Shown here: in pieces, positions 10,869 to 58,241 of the stretch
Layout: each line of letters starts with the position of its first letter
Numbering within the stretch: position 1 is the stretch's first letter
Source of the DNA: Candidatus Tayloriibacteriota bacterium
GTDB taxonomy: Bacteria; Patescibacteriota; Minisyncoccia; Phycocordibacterales; UBA6065
Length of the DNA: 64,000 nt
Direction of reading: 5' to 3'
Assembly (NCBI GenBank): GCA_016215405.1
Contig: JACRJQ010000002.1
Coordinates: forward strand, 59,597-123,596
The notes under the pieces: generated by a model
Database searches by the model: none
Seen by the model: the letters and a program-made list of their open reading frames with translations, nothing else
What the model was told of the DNA's origin: nothing
Translations under genes and position numbers: made by a program

Positions 10869-10884
10869 GCGAGCACTCGACCAA

Positions 10885-10946
10885 GCAGACACCCTACTCT
10901 TCACGATCCTCCTGGATCATGAAGAGGCTGGCTGTCTGCTTTTTTC
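10885..10946 (+). terminator. long nested hairpin terminator
   Basis: GCAGACA...CTCTTCA-cGATCCtcctGGATCa-TGAAGAG...TGTCTGC followed by TTTTTT. Confidence 0.55.
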
Positions 10947-11041
10947 GTATCCAAGCTCTCTCTTTTACGTCTTTCCGGCCCGCGAGCCGGAATCCAAGAT
11001 CATTTGGTTCCCGGATCGAGTCTGGGAAGACAGAGAGGATA

Positions 11042-28000: not shown

Positions 28001-29095
28001 TTATACCACTATTCCGCCTCCAAGACAAGTCTCTCCGTCGTAGACGACGAGCGACTGCCCGGAAGCGGCCATGATCGGCCTGTCGAACTTGAACACGGCT
28101 TCGCCTTCGCCTGTGACCTGAACGCGGCAAGGCACAAGCTCGCCGAGGTGGCGTATGCGAGCGAGGAGCGCTGTCGATCCGTTAGGATCTCCCGATATCC
28201 AGTTGCAGGAAGAGACGCGATAAGCCGTCTTCTCCGTTGAGAGTGCGCCGTCGGAAGACCTATGGGACACGACCACCTCGTTTCTCGAAAGGTTCCTCGA
28301 TACCACATAGTAGGGACGGCCGTCCGCAGTCTTGTTCGCGACCGTGAATCCGTGCCGCTCCCCTACGGTCAAAAACGCGGCGCCGTCATGCTCTCCTATG
28401 ACCGTCCCCTCCTCGTCGAGCACCTTGCCCTTTTTCAGCTCTATGTAATGGGAGAGGAATTCCTTGATGTCGACTTTCCCTATGAAGCAGAGGCCCTGGC
28501 TGTCTCTCTTCTCTGCGACCGGAAGGCGAAATCTCGCGGCGAGCCCCCTCGTCTCGCTCTTCGCCATGCCGCCCACCGGAAAAAGAATCCTGACGAGCTC
28601 TCGCTGTGAGAGCGTCCAAAGGAAGTAGGATTGGTCTTTCGACCTATCGGCGCCCATCCCCAACTCTACCGAGGCGAAACCTCGGTAATCGTTACCGAGG
28701 TTTCGCCTCGGTAAGACCTGCGCGTAATGCCCTGTCGCGATATAGTCGGCGCCACGAGCCATCGCCCAATCGAAGAAGCCGCCGAACTTGACGTACCGGT
28801 TGCACATGACGTCGGGGTTCGGCGTCCGTCCGGCCTTGTATTCTGAGACCATGTAATCGACGACCTCTTTCTTGTATTCCTTCTCCAGGTCTAGTGTGAG
28901 GAACGGTATGCCGAGGTGCACGCAGACGCGCATGGCGTCGAGCCTGTCCTCTCTCCACGTGCACTCCATCCAATCGGGCTGCCAGACCCTTATAAAGACT
29001 CCAGTCACATCGAAGCCTTGCTCTTTGAGAAGAGCAGCAGAGACGGAGGAATCGACTCCCCCCGACATGCCGACATAGACTTTCTTTCCGTTCAT
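28001..29095 (-). CDS. mnmA: tRNA-specific 2-thiouridylase MnmA
   Basis: PP-loop SGGVDSS and catalytic Cys residues. Confidence 0.9.
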   Translation of the reverse strand: MNGKKVYVGMSGGVDSSVSAALLKEQGFDVTGVFIRVWQPDWMECTWREDRLDAMRVCVHLGIPFLTLDLEKEYKKEVVDYMVSEYKAGRTPNPDVMCNRYVKFGGFFDWAMARGADYIATGHYAQVLPRRNLGNDYRGFASVELGMGADRSKDQSYFLWTLSQRELVRILFPVGGMAKSETRGLAARFRLPVAEKRDSQGLCFIGKVDIKEFLSHYIELKKGKVLDEEGTVIGEHDGAAFLTVGERHGFTVANKTADGRPYYVVSRNLSRNEVVVSHRSSDGALSTEKTAYRVSSCNWISGDPNGSTALLARIRHLGELVPCRVQVTGEGEAVFKFDRPIMAASGQSLVVYDGETCLGGGIVV

Positions 29096-36676: not shown

Positions 36677-36904
36677 CTACATCGCAGGAGCCTCCGCCTT
36701 CGTCTCGCAATGCTTGCACTCCTTTCGGTGAGTGAAGATGAGAACCAGGCCGGAAAGACCTACGAGGACGTATACGAGCCTCTCGAGCCACGCCATCGAG
36801 CCGAGGAGCATCTCTACGACATTCCATCCTCCTGCGCCTACGAGACCCCAGTTAAGGGCGCCGACGACCGCGAGGATGAAAGCTATCACGTGAAGTGCCT
36901 TCAT
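36677..36904 (-). CDS. DUF378-family small membrane protein
   Basis: ALNWGLVG...ERLVYVLVGLSGL is typical of DUF378. Confidence 0.65.
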   Translation of the reverse strand: MKALHVIAFILAVVGALNWGLVGAGGWNVVEMLLGSMAWLERLVYVLVGLSGLVLIFTHRKECKHCETKAEAPAM

Positions 36905-37029
36905 TTTTCAAAAATATTATCTTTATAAAACCGCTGCGACTTTTACCCATGAATTATAGCAACGTGGCAAGTTTTTGCCGTCGATGGTTATGCACAGCCG
37001 ACCTTTCGATCCACGACCCTGGCTCTGGG

Positions 37030-37075
37030 ATGAGCGACTAAAAACAGTATCATATATGATACTGTTTTTAGTCGC
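37030..37075. repeat. perfect palindrome, copy 1 (gagcgac-TAAAAACAGTATCATATATGATACTGTTTTTA-gtcgctc)
   Basis: The 32-bp core 37037-37068 is identical to the copies at 45360-45391 and 57552-57583; it lies 45 bp downstream of the ychF stop. Confidence 0.9.
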
Positions 37076-37116
37076 TCCAGCGACGCGCCCCTCTAATCAA
37101 AACCCGGGAGAGGAGA

Positions 37117-38214
37117 TTAGATCATGAATTCCATCACGTCTCCGTCTTTGACTATGTATTCCTTGCCTTCGGTGCGCACCCACCCTTTCTCTCGAGCCGC
37201 TCCGTACGAGCCCGCTTCGAGGAGCTTGTCCCACTCGATCACCTGAGCCCGGACGAACTTGTCCTTGAAGTCCGTATGGATAGCGGTGCCTGCGAGAGGC
37301 GCCGTCCAGCCCCTCTGTATCGTCCAGCCTCGGGTCTCTTTTTCGCCCGTCGTAAAGTATGTGATGAGCCCTAACATCTCGTAGCTTTTCCGTATGAGGG
37401 CGTCTATGCCGCTCTTGTCCGCTCCGAGGCCGGCGCGCATCTCGACCTTCTCCTCTTCACTCATCTCTTTAAGCTCGTTCTCGATACCCGCGTCTACCAC
37501 CACATAGGTGGAGCCGGTCTCCTTGAAGAACGCGAGGAGCTTCTGATACCTCTCGTCGTTCGTCTCGTCGAGGTTTCGGCCTCCGGATTTCTTATTGAGG
37601 ACGTAGAGGATCTTCTTCGAGGTCAGGAGGTGGATGTTATGGAGGAGAGGCGCCTCGTATTCGTCGGGCGTAACGGAAGAAGCGAGCTTTCCCGCCTCGA
37701 GGGCCGCCTGCAGCCTCTCGAGGAGGCCCATCTCTATAATGGCCTCCTTCTTGCCCGCCTTCACCTCCTTGCCGAGGTTCTGCGCCCGCTTCGTCACGGT
37801 CTGGAGGTCTGCCATGATGAGCTCGAGGTTTATCACCTCTATATCGCCCATAGGATCTATCTTGTTCGACACGTGGATGATGTCGGGATCCTCGAATATC
37901 CTGACTACCTCCGCTATAGCGTCGGTCTCGCGGATGTTCGTGAGGAACTTGTTGCCGAGGCCTTCTCCTGCGGATGCGCCCTTGACGAGCCCGGCGATAT
38001 CGACGAACTCGACGGCCGCAGAGACTGTCTTTTGCGTCTTGGAGAACTCGGCGAGCTTATAGAGCCTCTCGTCAGGCACGGCGACCACGCCCACGGACGG
38101 ATCTATGGTCGCGAACGGATAGTTAGCGATGAGAACGCCTTTTTTCGTGAGAGCCGAGAAAAGCGTCGATTTGCCGACGTTCGGGAGTCCGACGATGCCT
38201 ATAGAGAGGGCCAT
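37117..38214 (-). CDS. ychF: ribosome-binding ATPase YchF
   Basis: GIVGLPNVGKSTLF P-loop and a TGS domain. Confidence 0.9.
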   Translation of the reverse strand: MALSIGIVGLPNVGKSTLFSALTKKGVLIANYPFATIDPSVGVVAVPDERLYKLAEFSKTQKTVSAAVEFVDIAGLVKGASAGEGLGNKFLTNIRETDAIAEVVRIFEDPDIIHVSNKIDPMGDIEVINLELIMADLQTVTKRAQNLGKEVKAGKKEAIIEMGLLERLQAALEAGKLASSVTPDEYEAPLLHNIHLLTSKKILYVLNKKSGGRNLDETNDERYQKLLAFFKETGSTYVVVDAGIENELKEMSEEEKVEMRAGLGADKSGIDALIRKSYEMLGLITYFTTGEKETRGWTIQRGWTAPLAGTAIHTDFKDKFVRAQVIEWDKLLEAGSYGAAREKGWVRTEGKEYIVKDGDVMEFMI

Positions 38215-41496: not shown

Positions 41497-41606
41497 GGGG
41501 TGAAAAGGGGTTTGGGATAAGTATAGGCGCGGACCACAGGAAGTCCATGGAGTTATGCACAAATCAAAATGCCCGCGCGGAAGGTCGCGGGCATTCGTTT
41601 CCTGGC

Positions 41607-41912
41607 TCAGGCGAAGCGCGGAGGGTCCGCACAGTCGTAGGGAGAGCGAACGAGCGGCAACTCACGCCCGTCGCGCCGTTGGAACGAGGGGTGAATAACC
41701 GGAAGCTTTTGGAGGGCTTCCGTCGGCAGCCTCGCGCTTTCGAGCGAGGCTAAGTCGATCCTCGCTAAGGTGCGAGTATCGCTCGGTATGGCTGCTTTCG
41801 AGCCAGGAAAATGGTCTTGCGAGGATGTTTGCCTCGCAGACGGATTCTGATTTGAGGAAAGGACGAGGGACGCGGTGAGAAGCGCCCCAGACAAGAGGAG
41901 CTTCTTTAGCAT
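41607..41912 (-). CDS. small secreted hypothetical protein
   Basis: Signal peptide MLKKLLLSGALLTASLVLSS. Confidence 0.4.
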   Translation of the reverse strand: MLKKLLLSGALLTASLVLSSNQNPSARQTSSQDHFPGSKAAIPSDTRTLARIDLASLESARLPTEALQKLPVIHPSFQRRDGRELPLVRSPYDCADPPRFA

Positions 41913-41988
41913 GCGTGAAAGGGGTTTCTGGAGCCGGTCTTGAGTCTAGGCGATGACATCCGTCTTGTAAAGCGCTCCTTGTGGAGAC

Positions 41989-43248
41989 CTACCTCGCTTC
42001 GCCCAAATACGGCACAGAAAGGCGTTTCGACGATCCCCTCGGCATAAAAAGAGCTTTCTTCTCCCTTCTCCTCTCGCGATGGAGGGAGCGGGAGCTCGAA
42101 GCCATATGGACGAGGCTCTTCCCGTACTTCTTGTTGATCCTATCGACCGCTTCGAGCACCTTGCCTCCCTTCTCCGCCGCCCGCGCTCCCCCGAAGAGAT
42201 CCTCCTGAACGGCCTCTTCCGGGACCAGGCCGCAGAGGATCGCTCCCGTCGCGCGATAGAGGCGGCCCCGTTCGAATATCTCGTCGAAAGCTTTTTTCGC
42301 CTCCCTTACGATCTGGAACGAGCCGTTCGAGGGCAGAGAGAGCTTTCGCGAAGCGTTCGCATACGAGAGATCCTTGGTCTTGAGATAGACGGAGACGTCC
42401 TTGGCATAGAGGCCGAGCTCGCGGGCCCTCCGGCACGCGCCCTCGAGGTTCTTCGACAGCTCGGAAAATACGTACGAAGAATCGTCGCTCGCCGGAAAGA
42501 ACGTCCTTGTCTTCATGATAGACCTTTGAGGCTCGCTCCCCGTCGCGACTGGATGGACCGACACCCCGTTAAGCTCGAGATGCATCTCTTCTAGAGGCTT
42601 CGAGAAGCTCTCGCTCACCCATGCCGCAGGCTTTGAAGCGAGGTCGAGGGCCGTCGTTATCCCCTTCTTTCGCAGAGATATCGCCGTCGCAGAACCTATG
42701 CCCCAGACCTTATCTACGGGAGTCTTGCCAAGCAAAGAGGTCACATCTTCAGGACATACGATCGTGAGGCCGTCCGGCTTCTTCGATTTAGAAGCCATCT
42801 TCGCGAGGGATTTCGTCGAGGCGAGGCCGAGCGACACGGATATCCCAAGCTCTTTCCCGATCTCGCCCTTTAGGCGCGAGAGCACGGGCAAGGGATCCTT
42901 CTTAAATCCCGGCACGTCCGTGAAATCGGCGAAGCACTCGTCGATGGAATACTCCTCGACGACGTCGGTGTAGCGCCTCACGATATCCATCATCCGCTTC
43001 GAGAACACGGCATACGATTCATAGTCTGAGTCCACCACCGCGACCTGCGGGAACTGTCGGCGTATCTGGAATATGGGCATGGCGCGAGTGATGCCGAGCG
43101 CTTTCGCCTCGTAGGACATCGCCGAGGCGATGCCGCGCTCCTGGCCCGTTACGACCGGACGCCCGCGAAGCCTCGGGTCCTTCGCCGCCTCCACGGAGAC
43201 GAAGAACGCGTCGCCGTCGAGATGCATGATGTATCTTCGTCCCTTCAT
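41989..43248 (-). CDS. dinB: DNA polymerase IV (Y-family translesion polymerase)
   Basis: MHLDGDAFFVSVE and the catalytic SIDECFAD motif. Confidence 0.85.
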   Translation of the reverse strand: MKGRRYIMHLDGDAFFVSVEAAKDPRLRGRPVVTGQERGIASAMSYEAKALGITRAMPIFQIRRQFPQVAVVDSDYESYAVFSKRMMDIVRRYTDVVEEYSIDECFADFTDVPGFKKDPLPVLSRLKGEIGKELGISVSLGLASTKSLAKMASKSKKPDGLTIVCPEDVTSLLGKTPVDKVWGIGSATAISLRKKGITTALDLASKPAAWVSESFSKPLEEMHLELNGVSVHPVATGSEPQRSIMKTRTFFPASDDSSYVFSELSKNLEGACRRARELGLYAKDVSVYLKTKDLSYANASRKLSLPSNGSFQIVREAKKAFDEIFERGRLYRATGAILCGLVPEEAVQEDLFGGARAAEKGGKVLEAVDRINKKYGKSLVHMASSSRSLHRERRREKKALFMPRGSSKRLSVPYLGEAR

Positions 43249-43541
43249 GTATATTTGCGTATGACTGCGATCACTACCGCCTCGACTTTCGCGCCCTGCT
43301 TTGAGAGAGAGTCGAAACGGACCATCTTAAACTCTCCGTCGTCTACGGCGATCACTATATCCATCTCCTTCGGCGTCTTTGACCTATCGACGATGACGAG
43401 GTCGCCTTCGAGTATCCCGGCATCGCGCATCGAATCGGTCGCGGCGCGAAGCATAAAGGAAGCCTCCTTGTTCTCAACAAGATAATCGTCTAGAGACATG
43501 GTATCGAGAGCGCCGTCTTCGTCGTGTGTGCGAAAACCCAT
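43245..43541 (-). CDS. UmuD/LexA-like S24 peptidase domain protein
   Basis: 98 aa with the Ser (AATDSMRDAGI) / Lys (FKMVRF) dyad; there is a 4-nt ATGA overlap with dinB. Confidence 0.72.
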   Translation of the reverse strand: MGFRTHDEDGALDTMSLDDYLVENKEASFMLRAATDSMRDAGILEGDLVIVDRSKTPKEMDIVIAVDDGEFKMVRFDSLSKQGAKVEAVVIAVIRKYT

Positions 43542-43597
43542 GCGTGAAGTATAAGTGAACCAGAGTTCACTTACAAGGATGGGCTCGCTGCTCAGGG

Positions 43598-43668
43598 TGG
43601 ACCTAGGGGGAATCGAACCCCCGCCTCGTCAATGCGAATGACGCGTCGTACCACTAGACTATAGGCCC
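43598..43668 (-). tRNA. tRNA-Ala (anticodon CGC)
   Basis: Cloverleaf with acceptor GGGCCUA/UAGGUCC containing a G3:U70 pair; anticodon loop UUCGCAU. Confidence 0.75.
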
Positions 43669-43689
43669 GTTAAGGGACAGTATCCCTTG

Positions 43690-43763
43690 TGCGCCCTGGA
43701 AGATTCGGACTTCCGGCCTCTCGCGTGTGAAGCGAGCGCTCTGACCGACTGAGCTAAGGACGC
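43690..43763 (-). tRNA. tRNA-Val (anticodon CAC)
   Basis: Acceptor GCGUCCU/AGGGCGC; anticodon loop UUCACAC. Confidence 0.75.
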
Positions 43764-43769
43764 TCTAAG

Positions 43770-43840
43770 TGGACCTACCGGGAATCGAACCCGGCACTCA
43801 TCCATGCCATGGATGCGTATTACCGATATACTATAGGCCC
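43770..43840 (-). tRNA. tRNA-Ala (anticodon GGC)
   Basis: The acceptor again has G3:U70; anticodon loop AUGGCAU. Confidence 0.75.
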
Positions 43841-43912
43841 TCGCGGGATATATCTTACTACAAAGTTTGATAATTTGAAGCTTTTAAGCTATATTATCGC
43901 AGTCAGAAAAGC

Positions 43913-43985
43913 GGGCCCTTAGCTCATCTGGTAGAGCACCTCATTTGCAATGAGGGGGTGGCAGGTTCGAGTCCTGTAGGGTCCA
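43913..43985 (+). tRNA. tRNA-Ala (anticodon TGC)
   Basis: GGGCCCU acceptor with G3:U70; anticodon loop UUUGCAA; T-loop TTCGAGT. Confidence 0.8.
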
Positions 43986-43993
43986 CAAAACAA

Positions 43994-44016
43994 GTCCGCC
44001 TCTCGGCGGACTTTTT
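43994..44016 (+). terminator. intrinsic terminator after tRNA-Ala(TGC)
   Basis: GTCCGCC-TCTC-GGCGGAC followed by TTTTT. Confidence 0.6.
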
Positions 44017-44026
44017 GATGGACCCT

Positions 44027-44049
44027 AAAAAAAGCGCCGGGGCGCTTTT
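44027..44049. terminator. bidirectional hairpin terminator
   Basis: AAAAAAA-GCGCC-GGGG-GGCGC-TTTT. Confidence 0.5.
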
Positions 44050-44165
44050 GTCAGGACTCGAACGGCGGAGCGGGACCCAGATTAGCAAATCTGGGAGCGA
44101 GCCGGTGCCTAGACAAATCTGAGCGACGGCGAGGATTTAGTCGAGGGAGAGATCCTCATAGCCCC

Positions 44166-44651
44166 CTACTCGCATGCGACTTCGTTCGCCTCGAGGTTCG
44201 CTGTGACTATCCTGGCCGCACCGCCCGAATCTATGCACCACATAAGGGGCGCTCCCGAGGAGGTGCCCTTAAGAGGCGTCTCTGCGGCATAATTCGAGCC
44301 GTTTTCGTGGCATGTCACGATATCGAACGCCCCTGCGGTCGAGAGGGATATGTTGAGAGGCTGCGTCGTCGTGCCCCACGCCTCCTGAGCCTTGAGGAGA
44401 TTATATTCAAGGGTCTTCCCGCCGTTAGGCGAGGGTATCGATCCGCAGACGCCGGCATAGGAATTCCCGTTGTCTCCGTAATAGAGCTCGGCCGCCGTGC
44501 GTGCGTCATGCATATTGGACTTTATGAGGGCGTCCGTCCCCTTCTGCTTGCTCGAAGCTATGTTGCCGAGGACGATCGAAGATATGATGCCTATGATCGC
44601 GATCGATATGAGGAGCTCGACAAGGGTAAATCCTTTCCTAGAGTAGGTCAT
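44166..44651 (-). CDS. type IV pilin / pseudopilin (prepilin with class III signal)
   Basis: The ORF-track 44166..45188 extends antisense into the cupin gene; it was trimmed to MTYSRKG|FTLVELLISIAIIGIISS (a prepilin peptidase site). A C-terminal Cys pair (WCIDSGG...VACE) is present. Confidence 0.75.
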   Translation of the reverse strand: MTYSRKGFTLVELLISIAIIGIISSIVLGNIASSKQKGTDALIKSNMHDARTAAELYYGDNGNSYAGVCGSIPSPNGGKTLEYNLLKAQEAWGTTTQPLNISLSTAGAFDIVTCHENGSNYAAETPLKGTSSGAPLMWCIDSGGAARIVTANLEANEVACE

Positions 44652-44741
44652 TTCACAATCGTACCAGCTCTCTCGATATTCGCGAAAGCCGTTATCCCCG
44701 CAGCCACGCGACCGGAACGCGGAAAATGCTAGAATACAGCC

Positions 44742-45311
44742 ATGATAAAGCCATTCGCAGAGAGAGCGCACGACAAGATGCGGGAGGTCCTCATGGATCC
44801 CGACGCCCAAGGCCCCGAGACCCACTACTACATGATCCGAGGCGGCAAAGACAAAAGGAACATAACCGTCTGGGAGCCCGGCACTGTCGCCGGAGAGTAC
44901 ATAAAATCCTACGGCCACTATCATGTAGGCAAGCTCGACGAGACGTATACGATACTCGCAGGCGAAGGATACGTCCTCATGCAGACGAGGAAGGCCGGAA
45001 GCGACGGGTCCCCTATCGACGACGAGATCGACTCTTTCAAGGCGGTAAAGGTAAAGGCCGGAGACTCTGTATTCATCCCGTCGGGGGCGGGGCATCTCGC
45101 CGTAAATACCGGAAACACCTGGCTCGTCACCTCGGACGACAGTCCTGTCGATTTCGGAGAGAAAAACGCGGCGTCCCTGCCCGGACATGCCGATTACGAG
45201 CCTTTCAAGAGGCTCCGCGGAGCGGCATATTACGTCATCGACAGAGATGGCAAACCGGAGTTCGTAAAGAACCCTCAGTATAGGAACATCCCTCCCGTAG
45301 AGCTCTCTTAG
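44742..45311 (+). CDS. cupin-type glucose-6-phosphate isomerase (archaeal-type cPGI)
   Basis: 189 aa; TVWEPG...GHYHV...GE...GAGHLAVNTG matches the metal-binding cupin PGI of Thermococcales; an extended -10 (TGcTAGAAT) lies 11 nt before the ATG. Confidence 0.65.
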   Translation: MIKPFAERAHDKMREVLMDPDAQGPETHYYMIRGGKDKRNITVWEPGTVAGEYIKSYGHYHVGKLDETYTILAGEGYVLMQTRKAGSDGSPIDDEIDSFKAVKVKAGDSVFIPSGAGHLAVNTGNTWLVTSDDSPVDFGEKNAASLPGHADYEPFKRLRGAAYYVIDRDGKPEFVKNPQYRNIPPVELS

Positions 45312-45355
45312 AGATCTCTAAGAACCTGAAATAAATTCAGAACGACCTTTTTCTG

Positions 45356-45395
45356 CAGCTAAAAACAGTATCATATATGATACTGTTTTTAGCTG
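45356..45395. repeat. perfect palindrome, copy 2 (cagc-TAAAAACAGTATCATATATGATACTGTTTTTA-gctg)
   Basis: The core 45360-45391 is identical to copy 1; it lies between the convergent cPGI and GH57 genes. Confidence 0.9.
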
Positions 45396-45444
45396 TTTCT
45401 GAACGGACCTTGCGTCGAACCTTATCTGGAACCGCACAGAGCGA

Positions 45445-46833
45445 TTAGAACATCAGGTCTGAACCCGGCTTTACGTGCCCTGTATCGTTCCTTTCCATCT
45501 CCTCTTCGAGCTCCCGTATCCTGTCTTTTATCATCGAAGCGCGGTGGTATTCCTGAGACTCGGCCGCTAGAGTCATCTGCTCGCGGAGATTCTTGATCAT
45601 ATCCTCGAACTCTTCCTTGGTGACGAAGAGCTTTTCCTTCTCTTCGAGGCGCTCTCGTACCTCTTCGTTCTCTTGGCGCGAGAGCTCGTCTACGACGCCG
45701 GTGCGCTGCCATTCAAATCCCGTATAGAGGATGTCCTTATAGAGGTCGTCCGCCCTCTTGAGCTCCTCGGGCTTCGCGGTCCTCGATTCATGGATCGTCT
45801 TTTTCAGGTCGAAAGCCCCCCTCTCTATCATCTCGAGGCTCCACCACGGCCGCGCGGAGGCCCACCAATACTGGTCGGAATGGAGCGAGTAGTCGAGCGT
45901 CTCGCGGGACTTCTGCGTCTCATCGCGGCGAACCACGTCGATCGCGAGGTTCGTAAGCTCCCATTGCGCGACCTGCACCTTGTTCTTCGGATTCTTCCAG
46001 CGCAAGAACGGCTCGCCTATCGAGAAATCGCGAGGGACGGAGGCCCACGTCGAAGGGCGCGGGTCTATCTTCTCTACCGGAAGCCCGAGCTCGAGCACGT
46101 CGCCTAGCGAGAGCGACTCGATCTTGGTATCGGAAAGGAGGTCGAAGAGGAGCTTCTCGAGGCCCGGCCTGTGGTGACCGAATGTCTCGCCGTCCATGCC
46201 TGTGACCGTGTACTCGTTCTTGCCGAACCGCGGCTCGAGGAAGCGCATGATGGCAGGCAGGGTCGAGAGCTGCGAGGCGGAGAGTATCTTGAAGGAGAAA
46301 TTCCTCTCGCGGAAGAATACATAAAAGCCTTCGACCCCTTCGATCTCATAGACCTTCTCTCTCGAAGGGTGGCCTTCGCCGGGAAAAGCGAGCTCGTCGA
46401 TGATGATCCACTTATACCCCATCTTCTTCGCGACCTGGACCACCTTTTTCGAATAGGCCATCTCAGGCGAGAAGAATCCCCCTTTCTTCCATTTGGTGCC
46501 GAAATATCGATTGAGCCCTTCTTCGTTGAGACGTATCTGCCTCTCGATCTCCTCTTCCGGGAGCAATGGCAGGAACGCATGGTATTTCGCGCTTCCGGTG
46601 ATCTCAACCCCTCCCGATTCGATGAGAGCGCGGATGTTGTCGATAACGTCGGTCGCTCCGTTCTGCTCGAGGAGCTCGCAGAGGACGCTGTTTATGTTAA
46701 GCGTGACCCGAGCGCGAGGGATTCCTCGCAGGCCGGAGAAGAGCTTTCGGTAGCATTCGTCGGCGATACGCCTCACCCAGATCGGCTTTTGAGTCGGTGG
46801 CTGATATACGTGGAGGAAATTGGCCCATCTCAT
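45445..46833 (-). CDS. glycoside hydrolase family 57 protein (alpha-glucan branching/amylase-like)
   Basis: Catalytic-region motif TGMDGETFGHHRPG; N-terminus FLHVYQP. Confidence 0.65.
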   Translation of the reverse strand: MRWANFLHVYQPPTQKPIWVRRIADECYRKLFSGLRGIPRARVTLNINSVLCELLEQNGATDVIDNIRALIESGGVEITGSAKYHAFLPLLPEEEIERQIRLNEEGLNRYFGTKWKKGGFFSPEMAYSKKVVQVAKKMGYKWIIIDELAFPGEGHPSREKVYEIEGVEGFYVFFRERNFSFKILSASQLSTLPAIMRFLEPRFGKNEYTVTGMDGETFGHHRPGLEKLLFDLLSDTKIESLSLGDVLELGLPVEKIDPRPSTWASVPRDFSIGEPFLRWKNPKNKVQVAQWELTNLAIDVVRRDETQKSRETLDYSLHSDQYWWASARPWWSLEMIERGAFDLKKTIHESRTAKPEELKRADDLYKDILYTGFEWQRTGVVDELSRQENEEVRERLEEKEKLFVTKEEFEDMIKNLREQMTLAAESQEYHRASMIKDRIRELEEEMERNDTGHVKPGSDLMF

Positions 46834-46864
46834 ATCGTTTTATGTGGTTACGGGATAATACGCC

Positions 46865-48385
46865 TTACTCCTCCTTTTTGAGCTCGCGCTCGCGGAGCTT
46901 TGCGGCTCTGTCGAACACCTCGAGATACCTCACCGCCGATTTCTCCCAAGAGAAGTCCTCCGACATCCCTCTCTTTATGAGCTTGTTCCATTCCTTTTTA
47001 TTCCTGAAATTCTCGAAGGCGCGGATAAGGGCGATCATGACCGACGAAGAATCGAACTTGTCGAACACGAATCCGGTGCCCGCGCCTTTGTCTGGATCGT
47101 AGTCTTTGACGCTGTCGGCGAGGCCTCCGGTCCTCCTCACGACAGGGACCGCGCCCATCCTCATGGCTTCCATCTGGACGAGCCCGCACGGTTCGAACTG
47201 AGAAGGCACCAGAGCGACGTCCGCTCCGGCGAATACGACATGCGGCAAGACTGCGTCGAACGAGAGGTGCGCGGCGACGCGGCCTGGGTATTTGGTCTCC
47301 AATCCGTGGAAGAAGCCCATAAGGTCAGCGTCTCCGGAACCTACGACGACGAGCTGCATCGGAAGCTCTTGCATGAGGATATCCGCGATCGGATAGAGGA
47401 GCTCGAACCCTTTCTGCTTTGAAAGCCTGGAAACGATCCCTACGACGAACGCGTTCCTGTTACGCTCAAGCCCGAAGCGCTCCTGGAGCACCGTCTTGTT
47501 CCTGGCCCTATCGCCAAGACTCTCCTTGTCGTACTTGTACGAGATGTAAGGGTCTTTCTTCGGATCCCACATCGAGTAATCGATGCCGTTTAGGATACCG
47601 ACGAGCGCGTTACGCCTCTCGCGCAAAAGGCCGTCCAGGAGCTCGCCGTAATCTGCGGTGAGGATCTCCTTCGCATAGTTCGGCGATACCGTCGTCACCA
47701 TATCGGCGTGCATGATACCGCGGCGCATGCAGTTTATCTTGGTGAGGCGAGGATTCTCGAACGCGGGCACGGGAGAATGTCCGTCGTCATAATCCATCTC
47801 TTGGACGAAGCGATGGTCGAACATCCCCTGATAGTAGAGGTTGTGGATCGCGAAGACCGTCGCGATACCATTCACCTGAGGATTCTTCTTGTACTCGATC
47901 CGAAGGTAGTTAAGGACGAGGGCCGCCTGCCAATCGCACGCAACGATGACGTCCGGCTTCCATTCCTTGTGAGCCCGTATGAACTCGATCACGCCGCGGG
48001 CGAGGAGCGCCCAGCGGATAGCGTCGTCGGCGTATCCGTACACGTTCGACCTCTTCTCGTAATATTCCTGGTTCTCGAGGAAATAGGTCGTGACCGGATC
48101 GCCTGCTTTCTTAGGAGTGAATCTCTTCACGTTGCAGACGAGATGGGTCTCGCCCGACTCGTTCCCCGTAGGCACGCTCACGCCCTTCTGAACGAGGTCG
48201 AGCTTCCATTTCTCCTCTATGGAGAGGTATTTTGGTATCATCACCCTGGCGTCGCATCCCTTCTCCCGAAGCGCTCGAGACAGGGAATCCATGACCGAAC
48301 CCAAGCCTCCCACCCTGGCGAACGGAGCCGCCTCCGCGCCGACGAACAACACCCGCGAACCGCCGTTGAATTTAAAAAGCTTCAT
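46865..48385 (-). CDS. glgA: glycogen synthase (ADP-glucose type, GT5)
   Basis: RVLFVGAEAAPFARVGGLGSV. Confidence 0.85.
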   Translation of the reverse strand: MKLFKFNGGSRVLFVGAEAAPFARVGGLGSVMDSLSRALREKGCDARVMIPKYLSIEEKWKLDLVQKGVSVPTGNESGETHLVCNVKRFTPKKAGDPVTTYFLENQEYYEKRSNVYGYADDAIRWALLARGVIEFIRAHKEWKPDVIVACDWQAALVLNYLRIEYKKNPQVNGIATVFAIHNLYYQGMFDHRFVQEMDYDDGHSPVPAFENPRLTKINCMRRGIMHADMVTTVSPNYAKEILTADYGELLDGLLRERRNALVGILNGIDYSMWDPKKDPYISYKYDKESLGDRARNKTVLQERFGLERNRNAFVVGIVSRLSKQKGFELLYPIADILMQELPMQLVVVGSGDADLMGFFHGLETKYPGRVAAHLSFDAVLPHVVFAGADVALVPSQFEPCGLVQMEAMRMGAVPVVRRTGGLADSVKDYDPDKGAGTGFVFDKFDSSSVMIALIRAFENFRNKKEWNKLIKRGMSEDFSWEKSAVRYLEVFDRAAKLRERELKKEE

Positions 48386-48430
48386 GAGTTCCTATTATAC
48401 AACACCCTACTCAGGGAGCCTGGAAAAGGG

Positions 48431-50740
48431 CTATGGCCTATAGAGCCTCTTTCTGTATCCGTCGAGCATTGTAGCCGCAGTATAGCCGTTTTCTACGACT
48501 TTGATGCTTTTGCGCATCATACGGACCCACTTTTCAGGGATGCCTTCTACCTTCCTCTCGTAATACGCGGGAAGGGCCTCGTTTTCGAGCGAATCGTAGA
48601 TGGACCGCGAGACATCGTCGTTAGAGAGGGTCCATCCAAAGCCCTTCCAATCGACCTCCCCCACCCAGCCATCGGGAACGCTCATCTGCAGAGCGCCGTT
48701 AAGCCCGGCTTTCATGCCGCTCGTACCGCACGCCTCGACTCCGAGGAGGGGGGTGTTGAGCCATATGTCGGCGCCTTGAACGAGCTTCTTCGAGAGCTCG
48801 ACCGAATAGCCGGGGATATACGCGACCTTGCCTTTAAAAGCCGGATCAGAGGCGATCGCCCGCACCTTTTCCTCGATCGCCTTGCTCTCCGGGGACTCCG
48901 CGTAGACCTTTCCCGAGATGACGATCTGAAGAGGGCGGAGAGGGTCGTTAAGGAGCTTCAAGAGCCTTTGCGGGTCGTCGAAGAGCGCGAAGGGCCTCTT
49001 GTAAGGGACGAATCTCCTCGCCCAGACCAAGGTGCAAGCCTTCGGATCGAGAGAGGCCCCCGCCTTCGCGGCCTCGGCGACAAGTTCCTTCCTCAAAGAA
49101 GACTTCGCCGTCCACACGTCGACATCCGAGAGGTCCTTTGCGCGGAAACCAGGCGCCTGCCATCGACCCTGATGCACTCCGTTCGTTATGGGCATGAGCC
49201 TGCTCGAAGGGAATTTCTCCTTCTCGAACCTCGCGTGGAGCGCCGAGACGGCGCTCGCCTTGCCAGAGAGAGAAAGGAGGAACTTTGTCGCCGTGAACAT
49301 GCTCTGATCGGCGTCGTAGGCTCCAAGGAACATGAGAAGGTCCTTGCCTATGCCGAACTCCTGGCAGTATCCTCCCACGTACCGCCAGATGTCCTCTATC
49401 GAAGCGAGGGCTCCAGCGGGCAGGATCGTGTGCTTAGTCGCGACCACCCTATTGCGAACCGCCTCGAGAGCGGCGGCCTTCGATCCTTTCCCGGCCGGCG
49501 TACCCTCCGCGAGGAGCGCCAGAGCGGCGAACGCCATATTGCCTTCGTTTATATGATACGTCTTCGGCTCGATGCCGAGGGCCTTAAGGAGCCTATATCC
49601 GCCGATCCCTATGAGGATCTGCTGCCGCAAGCGCCTGTCGAAGTCCCTGTCATAGAGGTTACCGCGCGCCCGGTCCCTCGGGTCGTTCTCTTCTACGTCT
49701 GGATCGACGAGGTACAAGAGAGCGGAACCGAACCTCTTCTCCCACGCGCGCACAGAGACCTTCCTTCCCTCTATAGGGACCTCTACCGAAGCAGGCGAAC
49801 CTGAAGCAAGGGACGCCGCCTTAAAGCCGAGAGTCGACGGGTCCATCCCGTCATACGCCATTCCCAAAGCGACGAAGGAGGCGCCTTCTTCTCCTGCCTC
49901 GAAGAGAAGGTCGGCGGCCAAGACTCCGAGGCCCCCCGCATACATGCGGCCGTCGCCCCCGAGAGCGTATTCCGCGCAGAAGTAAGCGACCTCGAACTCT
50001 CGCTTGCTCCCTGAAGCGCCTTTTATGAGCCCCTCGATTATCTTTTCCGTGGCTTTTGGCCCGGAAGTCGAAACCGTCGCGACGCCTGTAGTCTTTACGC
50101 ACTCGTCATTTCCGCCGCCGTCGAGGGCATCGCCGACGAATACGGCGTCCGAAGGAGATATTTTCAAATATTCCAAGAGCTTGTTGACTCCGTAGGCCTT
50201 GTCGATTCCTTCTTCGGTGAAATCGATCGATGTCGATCCGCCTATCGACATAGAGACCCCGGGGAGGAGGGTCTTTAGATGGTCGACGAGAGCCCTCCTC
50301 TTCTCGCGGGTCGGGTCGAACGCGTACTTCTCTTCGAGCGGCGCGTCCTTGCCCAAAGCGGCATAGGTCATGAGGGTGCCCCTATCTTCGATATGCCTGC
50401 CAAGGTCTAGAGGCGACGCGCCGATCGCTTTCGCGAGCCTTTCAAGGATAGCGCGCCTCTTCTCGTCGCCAAGCTTTCGGGAATATACCCTCCTCCAGGC
50501 GCCGTCCTCGTAGACCCTGAGCTCCGCGCCTCCCGTAGGCAGGCAATACAGATTGCCCTTCTTCGAATGCGAGAGGCTCGAGACGACCTGATGATCGAAA
50601 CCCTCCATGGACTCGCCGGAGACGATCGCTACAGGCATCAGGTCGACGAGCTCGGACAAAAGAGCCGCCGCTCTCGGGGATATGCGGGAGCGGCTCTCAG
50701 TGAGCGTATTGTCTATATCGAATATGGCTATCTTTGGCAT
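48431..50740 (-). CDS. HAD-IIB phosphatase domain fused to alpha-glucan phosphorylase (GT35)
   Basis: N-terminal ~230 aa with HAD motif I IFDIDNTLT and motif IV GDALDGGGND, then EYALGGDGRMYAGGLGVLAAD and a phosphorylase core. Confidence 0.78.
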   Translation of the reverse strand: MPKIAIFDIDNTLTESRSRISPRAAALLSELVDLMPVAIVSGESMEGFDHQVVSSLSHSKKGNLYCLPTGGAELRVYEDGAWRRVYSRKLGDEKRRAILERLAKAIGASPLDLGRHIEDRGTLMTYAALGKDAPLEEKYAFDPTREKRRALVDHLKTLLPGVSMSIGGSTSIDFTEEGIDKAYGVNKLLEYLKISPSDAVFVGDALDGGGNDECVKTTGVATVSTSGPKATEKIIEGLIKGASGSKREFEVAYFCAEYALGGDGRMYAGGLGVLAADLLFEAGEEGASFVALGMAYDGMDPSTLGFKAASLASGSPASVEVPIEGRKVSVRAWEKRFGSALLYLVDPDVEENDPRDRARGNLYDRDFDRRLRQQILIGIGGYRLLKALGIEPKTYHINEGNMAFAALALLAEGTPAGKGSKAAALEAVRNRVVATKHTILPAGALASIEDIWRYVGGYCQEFGIGKDLLMFLGAYDADQSMFTATKFLLSLSGKASAVSALHARFEKEKFPSSRLMPITNGVHQGRWQAPGFRAKDLSDVDVWTAKSSLRKELVAEAAKAGASLDPKACTLVWARRFVPYKRPFALFDDPQRLLKLLNDPLRPLQIVISGKVYAESPESKAIEEKVRAIASDPAFKGKVAYIPGYSVELSKKLVQGADIWLNTPLLGVEACGTSGMKAGLNGALQMSVPDGWVGEVDWKGFGWTLSNDDVSRSIYDSLENEALPAYYERKVEGIPEKWVRMMRKSIKVVENGYTAATMLDGYRKRLYRP

Positions 50741-50749
50741 GGATGCTCG

Positions 50750-51100
50750 TTACCCCTCGTGCCCGAAAAGACCGTCTATCTTCGCCGCCAGTATGAAATC
50801 GTTCTCGGAAAGGCCTCCGATCGCATGGGTCGATAGGTCGAACCGCACCTTATTATACGAGATATGGATGTCAGGATGATGGCCTTCGGCTTGAGCCAAA
50901 GACGCCACCTTCGAAACGAACCCCATCGCCTCCTCGAAATCCGCGAATCGAAAGCCGCGCGATATCGTCTTGCCGTCCTCTGCCATCCGCCACTGCGGCG
51001 TCTGGACGAGCAGGGCTGCGGCCGCCTCCCGCGCGAGAGAAGGCACGCCGCCTTCGCAGGCGACGCATTTCTTATCCTTAAGGTCGATTATCTTTCCCAT
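50750..51100 (-). CDS. pterin-4a-carbinolamine dehydratase
   Basis: 116 aa with the EGHHPD motif. Confidence 0.8.
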   Translation of the reverse strand: MGKIIDLKDKKCVACEGGVPSLAREAAAALLVQTPQWRMAEDGKTISRGFRFADFEEAMGFVSKVASLAQAEGHHPDIHISYNKVRFDLSTHAIGGLSENDFILAAKIDGLFGHEG

Positions 51101-54727: not shown

Positions 54728-57346
54728 CTAGCCCTTCTTCAAGATCTTCTTGAGGTACTTTCCCGTATGGCTCTTCTCGTTCCTGGCGACGTCTTCCGGC
54801 GTCCCTTTCGCGACTATCTGTCCGCCTCCCTCCCCGCCTTCAGGACCCATGTCGATCACGTAATCGGCGCACTTGATGAGGTCGAGGTTGTGCTCGATCA
54901 CGATCACAGTGTTGCCGTGGTCTACGAGCTTTTGGAGTATCTCTATGAGCTTTCTCACATCTTCGTAGTGAAGGCCGACCGTAGGCTCGTCGAGGAGATA
55001 GACGGTGCGGTGGGTGTCGGGCCTGTAAAGCTCCGAAGATATCTTTACTCGCTGAGCCTCGCCTCCCGAAAGGGTCGTCGCCGACTGCCCGAGCTCGAGA
55101 TATCCGAGACCCACATCAGAGAGAGTCCTCATTCGGTCGTATATCGCCGGAATGTCTTCGAAGAACCTGAGGCTCTCTTCGACCGTCATCTGGAGCACCT
55201 CGTAGACGTTCTTTCCTTTGTACTCGATCTCGAGGGTCTCCTTTTGGAACCTCTTCCCCTGGCAGACCTCGCAGGGCACGTAGACCGTAGGGAGAAAATG
55301 CATCTCGACGGCTATCTCTCCGTTTCCTTGGCATGCCTCGCAACGGCCGCCTTTGACGTTGAAGGAGAATCGGTTCGACTTCCAGCCTCGAGCTCGGGCC
55401 TCTGTAGTCTCCGCGAAGAGGTCGCGCACGAACGTCCAGGCGCCGGTATAAGTCATCGGATTGGATCGCGGCGTCCTGCCTATGGGCGATTGGTCTATGA
55501 GTATGGTGCGAGAGACGTATTCGGTCCCGGTGAAAGACGCGGCGTTGAAGACCTCGTTCGTCCTGTGCCTCTTCTCGAGCCTGCCCTGGAGGTTCTTATG
55601 GATTATCTCGTAGAGGAACGAGGACTTTCCCGACCCCGAGACGCCCGTCACGCAGACGAGCTTGGCGAGAGGGATATCGGCATTGAGGTTCTTTATATTG
55701 AAGATATTGCCTCCGCGTACGGATAACTTTCCCTTGTCGTGGTTTCGGCGGGCGTCGGGAAGGTCGACCTTCATCTCGCCTCGCAGGTACGCGAGCGTAA
55801 GCGATTCCGACTTATTGTCTTTGGCCGTGAGCAAAGGCTCGAGATAGTCAGCGACGACGACGTTGCCGCCATGGATGCCCGCGCCTGGCCCGATATCGAC
55901 GATGTAGTCGGACGCGAAGATGGTGTCCTCGTCATGCTCGACCACGAGGATGGTGTTGCCGAGGTCGCGGAGGTTTAGAAGCGTCTTTATGAGACGGTCG
56001 TTATCGCGCTGATGCAGGCCGATGGTCGGCTCGTCGAGGACATAGAGCGCTCCGACGAGTCCCGATCCCAGCTGGGACGCGAGCCTGATGCGCTGGGCCT
56101 CGCCTCCGGAGAGCGTATGGGCGCGGCGGTCGAGCGTGAGGTAGTCGATCCCTACGTCGAGCATGAACTTGAGGCGAGACTCTATCTCGCGCAAGACCAC
56201 TTTCGCTATGCTCTTCTCCTTTTCGGAGAGCTCGATGTCGGCGAAATATCCGAAAGCGTCCGATATAGACATCCTTACCACGTCTACGATCGACCTCCCT
56301 CCGATAAGGACGTGAAGCGCCTCCTCGCGCAGCCTCGCCCCTTTGCATGCGTCGCAGGGCTCGTCGCCGAAGATGTATTTGGTCCCAAGGCCGTTACAGG
56401 TCGGACAAGCGCCGTAGGGCGAGTTGAACGAGAAGAGGCGCGGTTCGACCTCTGGATACGCGTATCCGTCGTACGGACACATGAATTTTACCGACATGAG
56501 GCGCTCGCCCTTAGGCTCGTCTATCTTGATGAGCCCTCCCGACTCGTGTATGGAGCGTTCGACCGCCTCGGAGAGCCTCTCGCGCACGCCCTTCGGATCG
56601 TTCTTGAATTCGCTTATGTAGAACTCGTCGACGAGGAGGTCGATGTCGTGCTTCTTGTTCTTGTCGAGCTCGATCCTCTCACGGAGCTTCTTTACCTGGC
56701 CGTCGACCTTCACGGTCTCGTAGCCTTTGCCGAGATAGTCGTAGAGCATCTGGTAGTATTCCCCCTTTCGCCCGACCACGAGCGGCGCGAATATTCGGAC
56801 CTTATCCTTGTCGACAGGGACCCCCATGACCTTCACCCCTTTATCGCCGGCTCTGTCCGCCTTGGCATGGGTAACGCTCTCGATTATGGTCTCGAGTATC
56901 TCTTCGTTAGAGAGCCTCTTTATCTCGCGGTCGCAGATGAGGCAGTGCGGCCTCCCGACGCGGGCGAAGAGAACTCGGAGATAGTCGTATATCTCGGTGA
57001 TAGTGGCGACCGTCGAGCGCGGATTGTTCGAGCGGGATTTCTGGTCTATGGATATGGCCGGAGAAAGCCCCGCTATCTCGTCGACGTCGGGCTTTTGCAT
57101 CTGGCGAAGGAACTGTCGAGCATACGAGGAGAGCGATTCGACGTAGCGGCGCTGCCCTTCGGCGAAGATGGTATCGAAGGCGAGAGACGACTTTCCCGAC
57201 CCAGAAAGGCCTGTGAACACGACCATCTTGTTGCGAGGCATCTCGACCGTTATGTTCTTGAGGTTGTGGGTGCGCGCTCCCTTTACGACGAGCTTGTCGG
57301 CTCCCGGATTAAAGTCGGCTTTCGAGGTCTTTTTGGCGGCAGACAT
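54728..57346 (-). CDS. uvrA: excinuclease ABC subunit A
   Basis: 872 aa with two ABC ATPase modules (GLSGSGKSS, GVSGSGKSS) and zinc-finger CxxC pairs. Confidence 0.92.
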   Translation of the reverse strand: MSAAKKTSKADFNPGADKLVVKGARTHNLKNITVEMPRNKMVVFTGLSGSGKSSLAFDTIFAEGQRRYVESLSSYARQFLRQMQKPDVDEIAGLSPAISIDQKSRSNNPRSTVATITEIYDYLRVLFARVGRPHCLICDREIKRLSNEEILETIIESVTHAKADRAGDKGVKVMGVPVDKDKVRIFAPLVVGRKGEYYQMLYDYLGKGYETVKVDGQVKKLRERIELDKNKKHDIDLLVDEFYISEFKNDPKGVRERLSEAVERSIHESGGLIKIDEPKGERLMSVKFMCPYDGYAYPEVEPRLFSFNSPYGACPTCNGLGTKYIFGDEPCDACKGARLREEALHVLIGGRSIVDVVRMSISDAFGYFADIELSEKEKSIAKVVLREIESRLKFMLDVGIDYLTLDRRAHTLSGGEAQRIRLASQLGSGLVGALYVLDEPTIGLHQRDNDRLIKTLLNLRDLGNTILVVEHDEDTIFASDYIVDIGPGAGIHGGNVVVADYLEPLLTAKDNKSESLTLAYLRGEMKVDLPDARRNHDKGKLSVRGGNIFNIKNLNADIPLAKLVCVTGVSGSGKSSFLYEIIHKNLQGRLEKRHRTNEVFNAASFTGTEYVSRTILIDQSPIGRTPRSNPMTYTGAWTFVRDLFAETTEARARGWKSNRFSFNVKGGRCEACQGNGEIAVEMHFLPTVYVPCEVCQGKRFQKETLEIEYKGKNVYEVLQMTVEESLRFFEDIPAIYDRMRTLSDVGLGYLELGQSATTLSGGEAQRVKISSELYRPDTHRTVYLLDEPTVGLHYEDVRKLIEILQKLVDHGNTVIVIEHNLDLIKCADYVIDMGPEGGEGGGQIVAKGTPEDVARNEKSHTGKYLKKILKKG

Positions 57347-57465
57347 GGCAGATATATAGGTTTCTCCCCCAGGATGGGTACCTGGGGTTAGTACGGAGAG
57401 TCTAGCAGATTAAGGTCTCGATTTCCATACTGCTCGCCGTTCTAGACCCCAAACAAAGATTCAGA

Positions 57466-57537
57466 CACTTTCTCTCCCCACTCCCTCTTCCACCACCCCA
57501 CCACCCCCTTTTTCCTCTCACTTTCTCTTCTCCTCCC
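57466..57537. repeat. ~70-bp polypyrimidine (top) / polypurine (minus) low-complexity tract upstream of uvrA
   Basis: TCTCTCCCCACTCCCTCTTCCACCACCCCACCACCCCCTTTTTCCTCTCACTTTCTCTTCTCCTCCC. Confidence 0.8.
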
Positions 57538-57549
57538 AAAAAGATCCGC

Positions 57550-57585
57550 GCTAAAAACAGTATCATATATGATACTGTTTTTAGC
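57550..57585. repeat. perfect palindrome, copy 3 (gc-TAAAAACAGTATCATATATGATACTGTTTTTA-gc)
   Basis: The core 57552-57583 is identical to copies 1 and 2; it lies 40 bp downstream of the esterase gene and upstream of uvrA. Confidence 0.9.
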
Positions 57586-57623
57586 CCTCTATTCGACGAC
57601 CCCCCAGGCGGATCAGGTTCAAG

Positions 57624-58241
57624 CTAGACGAGCGATTTGATGTCGCGGACAAGCTCGGGGAAATGCTCCTGCCTGAAATGTCCTCCCTCTTTGAATATGA
57701 CAAGCTTTGCCTTAGGAAGCAGCTTCGCATATCTTCTCGCGTGAGAAAGCGGAACCACCTTATCATCCTCGCTTTGATAGATAGATACCTTAGGAACTTG
57801 ATTTTCGAGCCTTCGAAGAGATTTCGGTAGGACCCAACCTGAAATCGCATCGGCCCCCTTATCTTTTTGAGAAAAATAAGGCGCGACAAGATAAAGAGCC
57901 CTCGCGCGCACGGGCAATGCGTTCTCGCTAAGATAACGAGCGAGAAATATGCCTCCAAGGGAATGCCCCACGAGCGTAACGCCGTCTTCAGCGAACTTTA
58001 ACGCCTTATCGAACCACACTTTCCATTCCTCATACCTCGCATGGATCGCCAGCGGCATTTTGGGAGCGAGCACTTCAAATCCTTCTCCGAGATCGGACTG
58101 AAGATTATCCTTCCATCTCTTCGTACCGACAGGTAGAAGATCCTCTTTTTCGATGCCTTCCTTTTTGAGAGCCGCGAAAAATTTTTGCCGCGACTCATAA
58201 AAGTCGCCGCCGTGTATGACGATGAGCTGGCGCTTCTTCAT
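57624..58241 (-). CDS. alpha/beta-fold serine hydrolase (RBBP9/YdeN-like esterase)
   Basis: 205 aa with the nucleophile elbow VGHSLGG. Confidence 0.7.
   Translation of the reverse strand: MKKRQLIVIHGGDFYESRQKFFAALKKEGIEKEDLLPVGTKRWKDNLQSDLGEGFEVLAPKMPLAIHARYEEWKVWFDKALKFAEDGVTLVGHSLGGIFLARYLSENALPVRARALYLVAPYFSQKDKGADAISGWVLPKSLRRLENQVPKVSIYQSEDDKVVPLSHARRYAKLLPKAKLVIFKEGGHFRQEHFPELVRDIKSLV

Follow-up and report, generated by a model that had tools for sequence, protein, structure and literature searches.

The window, that is, the whole 64-kb stretch of DNA that was analyzed, carries one and the same perfect palindrome in three places, each of them a gap just past the 3' end of a gene. The DNA belongs to a Candidatus Taylorbacteria MAG (Parcubacteria, CPR); the YchF and esterase proteins of the window are 100% identical to proteins encoded on a 186-kb contig under that name. 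The exact 32-mer TAAAAACAGTATCATATATGATACTGTTTTTA occurs three times with zero mismatches, against an expectation of 0 from 100 shuffles. The three copies, which have no strand of their own, and the genes that border them are listed here in order along the window.

36677-36904, minus strand: DUF378 gene (Pfam), the downstream neighbor of copy 1
37032-37077, no strand: copy 1, GAGCGAC + core 37039-37070 + GTCGCTC, between the ychF stop (37117) and the DUF378 start (36904)
37117-38214, minus strand: ychF (Pfam YchF-GTPase_C/MMR_HSR1), whose 3' end precedes copy 1
44742-45311, plus strand: cupin-type GPI gene (Pfam), convergent with the GH57 gene across copy 2
45356-45395, no strand: copy 2, CAGC + core 45360-45391 + GCTG, between the convergent GPI and GH57 genes
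45445-46833, minus strand: GH57 gene (Pfam), whose 3' end faces copy 2
54728-57346, minus strand: uvrA, after copy 3, with its start 203 nt from copy 3
57550-57585, no strand: copy 3, GC + core 57552-57583 + GC, between the alpha/beta-hydrolase gene and uvrA
57624-58241, minus strand: alpha/beta-hydrolase (esterase) gene (Pfam), whose 3' end precedes copy 3

The unit common to all three copies is 34 bp long, begins with C and ends with G (CTAAAAAC...GTTTTTAG); in copies 2 and 3 the identical stretch reaches 36 bp. Its center is TCATATATGA, its inner 18 bp are AGTATCATATATGATACT, and the core has a GC content of 19%, compared with 55% in the window and the genome. Past the 34-bp unit the palindromy continues into GC-rich shells that differ in each copy and add 6, 3, and 1 extra pairs in copies 1, 2, and 3, respectively. 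A previous sequence-only reading of this DNA had reported three mismatch-free 32-bp palindromes within copy-specific inverted-repeat shells, and both observations were reproduced: total perfect palindromy is 46, 40, and 36 bp, and only the position of the core of copy 1 had to be shifted by 2 bp (37039-37070, not 37037-37068). For copy 1 alone, the chance probability of the shell pairing is ~2e-4, which suggests that formation of a hairpin or cruciform itself matters. Degenerate or half copies are absent from the window, as a 16-nt half-site allowing up to 3 mismatches is found solely inside the three palindromes. The copies all fall between 37 and 58 kb of the window. Their 150-bp flanks have no mutual homology past the shared core, and a segmental duplication is therefore ruled out.

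Copy 1 begins 39 nt past the ychF stop and copy 3 begins 38 nt past the alpha/beta-hydrolase stop, in the gene order response regulator, alpha/beta hydrolase, palindrome, uvrA; copy 2 is flanked by convergent genes, with the GPI stop 44 nt away on one side and the GH57 stop 49 nt away on the other. It had been noted before that each copy sits 3' of a minus-strand gene (ychF, GH57, esterase) and that one lies between convergent genes; this holds, at distances of 38-49 nt. Coding sequence makes up 90% of the window, and the intergenic zone within 100 nt 3' of a gene amounts to 5.2%, so that the presence of all three copies in this zone has a probability of ~1e-4. Copies 1 and 3 are also located ~80-140 nt upstream of conserved promoter regions, not over them.

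Both of these upstream regions have features of their own. The region upstream of the DUF378 gene (36925-37000, minus strand; CTGTGCATAACCATCGA...CTTGCCACGTTGCTATAAT...GTAAAAGTCG) is conserved in L002, L003, and L093 despite variable inserts toward ychF, and probably comprises the promoter and leader of that gene. A purine-rich tract of ~95 nt (GGGAGGAGAAGAGAAAGTGAGAGGAAAAAGGGGGTGGTGGGGTGGTGGAAGAGGGAGTGGGGAGAGAAAG, 57445-57537, minus strand) separates copy 3 from the uvrA promoter and is absent in L007 and L008. The uvrA leader itself contains a hairpin (57350-57400, minus strand), CCCCAGG-TACCCAT-CCTGGGG, located 11-53 nt before the start codon. A corresponding hairpin is found in L007:1775-1810 (CCCCTAGG-TACCCAT-CCTAGGGG), in L008:9925-9950, and in L014, L017, L043, L055, L071, and L080. 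Its stems are fully covarying among the other genomes, the loop often ends in CAT, and there is no Rfam match; judging from this conservation, the hairpin could be a leader RNA or an operator.

Some library linkers are perfect palindromes of ~32-44 bp, and the composition of the core is foreign to the genome, as might be seen if adapter or linker DNA had entered the assembly or fragments had been joined into a chimera. However, when run SRR12113407 is assembled independently (Logan, k=31), all three copies are recovered, each with its own flank, on contigs L005 (copy 3, with the esterase gene), L096 (copy 2, with GPI), and L097 (copy 1, with DUF378). Relatives share the gene order on both sides of copies 1 and 3, all three copies are outside coding sequence, and a related variant of the palindrome is present in a different sample and genome (L003/L004). 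Given the independent contigs and the conserved synteny, we conclude that the palindromes are not an assembly or library artefact; this explanation is refuted for practical purposes, and we assign it a negligible probability. All three Logan contigs end within a copy, which shows that palindromes of this kind break k-mer assemblies, a minor practical consequence.

The anatomy of the palindrome resembles that of a bidirectional intrinsic (Rho-independent) terminator, in which an A-tract, a hairpin, and a T-tract lie just past stop codons and also between convergent genes. As RNA, its inner hairpin (ACAGUAUCA-UAUA-UGAUACUGU) has a predicted energy of -9.5 kcal/mol and A5/U5 flanks on both strands. 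The sequence-only reading had described a 13-bp hairpin flanked by A5 and U5; the flanks are as described, while the inner stem is shorter, at 9-11 bp. The full hairpins fold at -27 to -38.5 kcal/mol with z-scores of -5 to -9 (copy 1 at -38.5 kcal/mol, z -7.9; copy 2 at -27 to -30 kcal/mol). The other long hairpins in the window are GC-rich, lie 3-24 nt past stops, and typically consist of an A-tract, a stem, and a T-tract, for example CAAAAGCCCGCCAAAGGCGGGCTTTTG (after DUF378) and AAAAGCCGCGCTTTCGCGCGGCTTTT. As was also stated earlier, no two of them have a sequence in common. Since the A5-stem-T5 anatomy is that of the genome's own GC-rich bidirectional terminators, the palindrome most likely serves as a weak two-way terminator, and the proposal of a bidirectional-terminator shape is upheld. 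However, there are differences. Ordinary terminators have no common sequence, whereas the three palindromes are identical over 34 bp. Their inner stem, rich in A and U, is less stable than the other terminators of the genome, which fold at -13.7 to -24.4 kcal/mol. Finally, the palindromy runs past the U-tract into the GC-rich shells, an extension for which a canonical terminator has no need.

Copy 3 has an additional pair of outer arms:

57538-57549, minus strand: outer 3' arm of copy 3, GCGGATC (57549-57543) followed by T5 (57542-57538), abutting copy 3 and pairing with GATCCGC at 57614-57608
57608-57614, minus strand: outer 5' arm of copy 3, GATCCGC, separated from the palindrome by a 22-nt bulge

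In the minimum free energy fold the GATCCGC and GCGGATC arms pair around copy 3, and copy 3 with its outer arms and U5 is, as modelled, of the canonical stem-then-U5 terminator shape for the hydrolase transcript. Copies 1 and 2 have no U-tract after the full stem and outer shell, and termination there would therefore rely on the internal U5. The possibility that the palindrome was inserted into the loops of pre-existing terminators was discarded: the outer stem and U5 of copy 3 fit it loosely, and copies 1 and 2 are without flanking T-tracts. A search for a known RNA family gave no Rfam match of note, the best being a plant miRNA model with an E-value of 2.4.

One check put forward with the sequence-only reading was to see whether the copies are missing at orthologous loci of relatives. 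They are: the palindrome is absent at these loci in L002, L003, L007, L008, L093, and L095, where GC-rich terminators, shorter spacers, or, in L093, another insert are found instead. The spacer between ychF and the DUF378 gene is 212 bp long in the window and 105-112 bp long, without a palindrome, in L002, L003/L004, and L095, whose YchF proteins are 86%, 84%, and 83% identical to that of the window, respectively. The extra ~105 bp of the window lie directly after the ychF stop and hold copy 1, while the promoter region farther downstream is conserved. In L093 the spacer holds an insert of its own, a 66-aa ORF. In the slot before uvrA, L007 (esterase 61% identical) has a 28-bp GC-rich palindromic terminator, ACCCGCAATGCATCGATGCATTGCGGGT, followed by a T-run, and in L008, the closest relative (UvrA 89% identical), which lacks the esterase gene, the slot is taken by a long GC-rich hairpin.

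The palindrome family does occur elsewhere in a sister genome. L003/L004, which stems from SRR25822377/79 and is syntenic with the window (YchF 84% identical), carries GTAAAAGAGTATCATATATGATACTATGTGTA between yceG and mnmA, 57 nt past the yceG stop; it is identical to the window palindrome at 26 of 32 positions, including the whole inner 18-mer. In the window, the yceG-mnmA spacer is 26 bp long and contains no palindrome. A second family member, ATAGTATCATATATGATACTAT, is located at the very start of an L003/L004 contig. In the L003 copy the outer arms and flanks have diverged and the T-tract is lost, while the inner 18 bp are kept, which points to conservation of something beyond termination, for instance recognition by a protein. 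As with MITEs, orthologous sites are filled in some genomes and empty in others, among relatives that are only 84-89% identical in protein, a distance at which ordinary spacer turnover could mimic presence and absence. Logan look-ups for empty sites at the strain level returned only run SRR12113407. Absence from the orthologous sites of relatives, together with presence elsewhere in the sister genome, leads us to conclude that the palindrome is a site-variable, lineage-restricted repeat and not a conserved operator. It is a real, non-chance, lineage-specific dispersed repeat in terminator positions.

Outside this lineage the family was sought at increasing distance. Further members were detected neither in fragments of the closer relatives L002, L008, L092, L093, and L095 nor in ~1.4 Mb from 80 other Parcubacteria loci. 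The 22-bp core has no match in 185,579 species-representative genomes or in IMG/VR, and one match in JGI metagenomes, L001. This sequence (Ga0326597_10452560) contains at L001:257-282 a 26-bp perfect palindrome, CAACAGTATCATATATGATACTGTTG, which has 24 bp in common with the core of the window. This palindrome is part of the reading frame of a CPR-type membrane-anchored orphan protein, in which it specifies the residues NSIIYDTV, and the only homologue of that protein also has the palindrome. Chance or an in-frame insertion could account for the L001 match, which is therefore uninformative. For the inner core of 18 bp, IMG/VR has four matches, all within genes of AT-rich phages and without an extended palindrome, and these were set aside as chance.

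What kind of dispersed repeat this is can be approached by comparison with described families. On the sequence data we give about an even chance to the reading that the palindrome is a miniature repeat of the REP/MITE kind, located in the places of terminators and probably acting as one. REP and REPIN sequences are short extragenic palindromes at gene 3' ends whose RNA hairpins act on termination and 3'-end stability (PMC3337134, PMC3184786). Like the REP, BIME, and REPIN sequences of Enterobacteria and Pseudomonas, which are lineage-specific extragenic palindromes of 20-40 nt at 3' ends and in convergent gaps, the palindrome of the window is short, extragenic, and present in identical form at three unrelated loci. 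Unlike these sequences, which are imperfect, GC-rich, and oriented and have a conserved 5' tetranucleotide (GTAG-like), it is perfect and AT-rich (19% GC) and has neither a spacer nor an orientation. REPs are also present in hundreds of copies per genome, compared with 3 copies in the 64-kb window, and are mobilized by RAYT Y1 transposases, whereas the window has no RAYT gene. Pfam scans of the ORFs in the window revealed no transposase, RAYT (Y1_Tnp), recombinase, integrase, HTH candidate, or parent element.

There is a similar balance of likeness and difference with MITEs that duplicate TA (IS630/Tc1-mariner, Correia, and RUP elements). These are likewise non-coding and intergenic, consist only of inverted termini, and differ in presence and absence between genomes. 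The unit of the window amounts to two abutted 14-16-bp inverted termini with TA at both ends in all copies, and like IS630-type MITEs it starts and ends with TA, in the context C-TA...TA-G. IS630 targets CTAG and duplicates TA. However, at 28-36 bp the palindrome is several-fold smaller than any described MITE (~50-500 bp), no parent IS or transposase is found in the window or related loci, and its flanks are inverted, not direct, repeats. The terminal TA belongs to the conserved core, and a TA duplication therefore cannot be separated from the core. The ends are possibly the product of an IS630-like TA duplication in a CTAG target (C-TA-[28 bp]-TA-G); a REP-like substrate in the form of a single-stranded DNA hairpin, or simple abutted inverted termini, are also possible. 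As the palindrome falls outside the strict definitions of both REPs and MITEs, we claim a likeness in behavior and not membership. Among the explanations that had been offered for three identical AT-rich copies beyond termination, the REP/MITE-like element is the best supported, given the empty sites in relatives and the occurrence of the family elsewhere in the sister genome.

If the palindrome is a REP/MITE-like repeat, a small lineage-restricted extragenic palindrome would spread by copy-and-paste, not by segmental duplication, and would settle in short gaps just past gene ends. There, the A5 and T5 around its AU-rich stem would provide the flanking genes with a rather weak two-way intrinsic terminator and a 3'-end hairpin, which the GC-rich outer pairs of each copy would strengthen. 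From the positions and sequences of the copies we infer that the repeat is mobile and that transcription may actually terminate at it. The outer shells presumably result either from selection for a stable hairpin or from fold-back templated "palindrome perfecting"; fold-back templated correction of quasi-palindromes is an established Ripley-type template-switch model.

The 32 bp can also be divided into 13-bp arms, TAAAAACAGTATC, around ATATAT. The resulting 13+6+13 arrangement matches the core anatomy of tyrosine-recombinase sites such as loxP, FRT, and dif, and three identical sites of the lox/FRT/dif type would permit the 8-kb and 12-kb segments between them to be inverted or deleted. The gene content of the region does differ from that of relatives: L008 lacks the esterase, and both L003 and L008 lack a 9.5-kb block located between ddl and G6PD. 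However, the copies do not lie at the boundaries of the variable blocks, scans of the window gave no recombinase or integrase gene, and the fully symmetric spacer would confer no directionality. Alternative junctions were not seen, the Logan contigs simply breaking at the palindrome, and a recombination site leaves the copy-specific palindromic shells unexplained. We therefore consider it improbable. The copies are likewise unsuited as att sites bounding an island, as they lie away from the edges of the blocks that differ from L003 and L008.

Several other known site types were compared with the palindrome. Paired DUS of Neisseria and USS of Haemophilus are similar in that an identical short sequence is found in inverted pairs downstream of genes and doubles as a terminator. 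However, DUS and USS are mostly abundant single copies, also inside genes, at ~1 per kb, whereas the half-site of the palindrome (up to 3 mismatches) never occurs alone in the window. No parS-like site was found within 3 mismatches, and by eye the ends do not fit the RYYYAAC/GTTRRRY of integron attC sites. A LexA/SOS box was considered because the window has uvrA, uvrB, uvrC, and a umuD-polV pair; it was rejected, as the ACAGTA-N10-TACTGT geometry matches no known LexA box, two of the three copies have no connection with repair genes, and the single S24 protein present is without an HTH.

Protein recognition of the inner core is the main rival to a dispersed repeat, although we think it unlikely. 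On this reading an HTH protein, dimeric or tetrameric and with its gene outside the window (a TrpR/YerC-like protein, for example), would use the palindrome as an operator or roadblock and the inner 18 bp as its recognition core. Several observations speak for it. The window genome and L003/L004 have the same inner 18-mer despite diverged outer arms and flanks. In other Parcubacteria, a TrpR-like HTH gene (143-152 aa, PF01371) is bordered on both sides by AT-rich perfect palindromes. Several palindromes centered on CGATATATCG are located 90-115 bp upstream of uvrA, and copy 3 of the window is likewise upstream of uvrA. Additionally, the window palindrome and a palindrome in L026 both contain AGTAnnATATATnnTACT. 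The retention of the inner 18 bp in L003 without the T-tract, the ATATAT center, and the L026 pattern thus keep protein binding in consideration. On the other hand, an operator at copy 2, which has converging 3' ends on either side, would have no promoter to act on; copies 1 and 3 neither overlap nor adjoin the conserved promoters ~80-140 nt downstream of them; and relatives do not have the sites at orthologous positions. A tblastn search with four Parcubacteria TrpR-like proteins did not find a TrpR-like gene in the window or in L003, and neither the 34-bp identity nor the palindromic extension into unique flanks is needed by an operator. The earlier proposal of a conserved operator is weakened by the non-orthologous sites, the convergent copy 2, the off-promoter positions of copies 1 and 3, and the lack of a regulator in the window.

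The palindromes around the TrpR-like genes are a finding of their own. A 143-aa TrpR/YerC-like HTH gene (PF01371) is encoded between uvrB and uvrA in L049:9052-9527, L052:9400-9885, L061:9010-9492, and L067:8230-8750, and a related 152-aa gene is located elsewhere in L041:3093-3710. In all five loci both the start and the end of the gene are flanked by palindromes centered on CGATATATCG, some of them exactly 32 bp long, with lineage-specific outer arms. In L041, a 70-bp unit with two palindromes is repeated on either side of the gene. The 10-mer CGATATATCG occurs 13 times in 1.4 Mb, compared with ~1.3 expected, and more palindromes of this type are found near uvrA, uvrB, or uvrC as well as in L026:8274-8305 and L054:2720-2790. 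From their sequence and placement, the palindromes at TrpR-like genes are likely operators, and gene and palindromes together may constitute an unrecognised autoregulated DNA-repair regulator of CPR bacteria.

The palindromes associated with TrpR/YerC-like genes and those of the window are alike in being AT-rich, perfect, and up to 32 bp long, with an ATATAT center and lineage-specific arms, and in that some lie upstream of uvrA. They differ in that the former are centered on CGATATATCG and located at the ends of a conserved HTH gene, while the latter are centered on TCATATATGA, have no such gene, and include a copy between convergent 3' ends. A protein-palindrome system specific to Parcubacteria/CPR, in which a dedicated protein (a TrpR/YerC-like HTH protein or an unrecognised transposase) would bind the ATATAT-centered inner 18 bp, appears to us slightly less probable still than an operator or roadblock. 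If such a system existed, its sites would be dispersed to gene ends, and either the protein bound there or an extruded hairpin would enforce termination or insulate neighboring operons; in function the system would correspond to REP/RAYT, but with a different protein as its basis.

Further features were noted elsewhere in the window. The ~9.5-kb block (41600-51100) lies between ddl and the genes for a 190-aa protein and G6PD, which are adjacent or nearly so in L003 and L008; this points to a variable region. It encodes a pterin dehydratase, a 769-aa HAD/phosphorylase-like protein, GlgA, GH57, the cupin GPI, a pilin-like gene, four tRNAs, and a umuD-like/Pol IV-V pair, the last of which is present in L093. 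The UmuD-like protein (43245-43541, minus strand) is 98 aa long, consists of a Peptidase_S24 domain without an HTH, and overlaps the start of the gene for an IMS-family translesion polymerase (41989-43248, minus strand). Within the coding sequence of mnmA (tRNA 2-thiouridylase), a 47-bp perfect hairpin with 22-nt arms and a 3-nt loop (TACCGAGGCGAAACCTCGGTAA TCG TTACCGAGGTTTCGCCTCGGTA, 28667-28713) is unusual for a coding region. The longest ORF at 10844-12925 (plus strand) matches Pfam NAD-GH (PF10712, E 2e-147), a family that represents the spurious antisense ORF of dnaK; the real gene there is probably a minus-strand dnaK adjoining dnaJ (9461-10543). In the composition of the window, CTAG is depleted ~6-fold (42 observed, ~242 expected from base composition) and TCGA is over-represented 3-fold (759).

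The palindrome is a modest curiosity and not a new kind of system, and the side lead provided by the TrpR-like gene and the palindromes at uvrA and uvrB may prove more useful, as it concerns a possible unrecognised DNA-repair regulator. Genomes of CPR/Patescibacteria are ~1 Mb in size and highly streamlined, and they are regarded as having few repeats and little mobile DNA. A REP-like repeat that takes the place of terminators and turns over between sister genomes of this group would, if the dispersed-repeat reading is true, mean that streamlined genomes still host miniature selfish or domesticated repeats. The palindrome family would then be a natural marker of strain-level variation, and would offer a handle on the limits of transcription units in organisms that nobody can yet grow alone.
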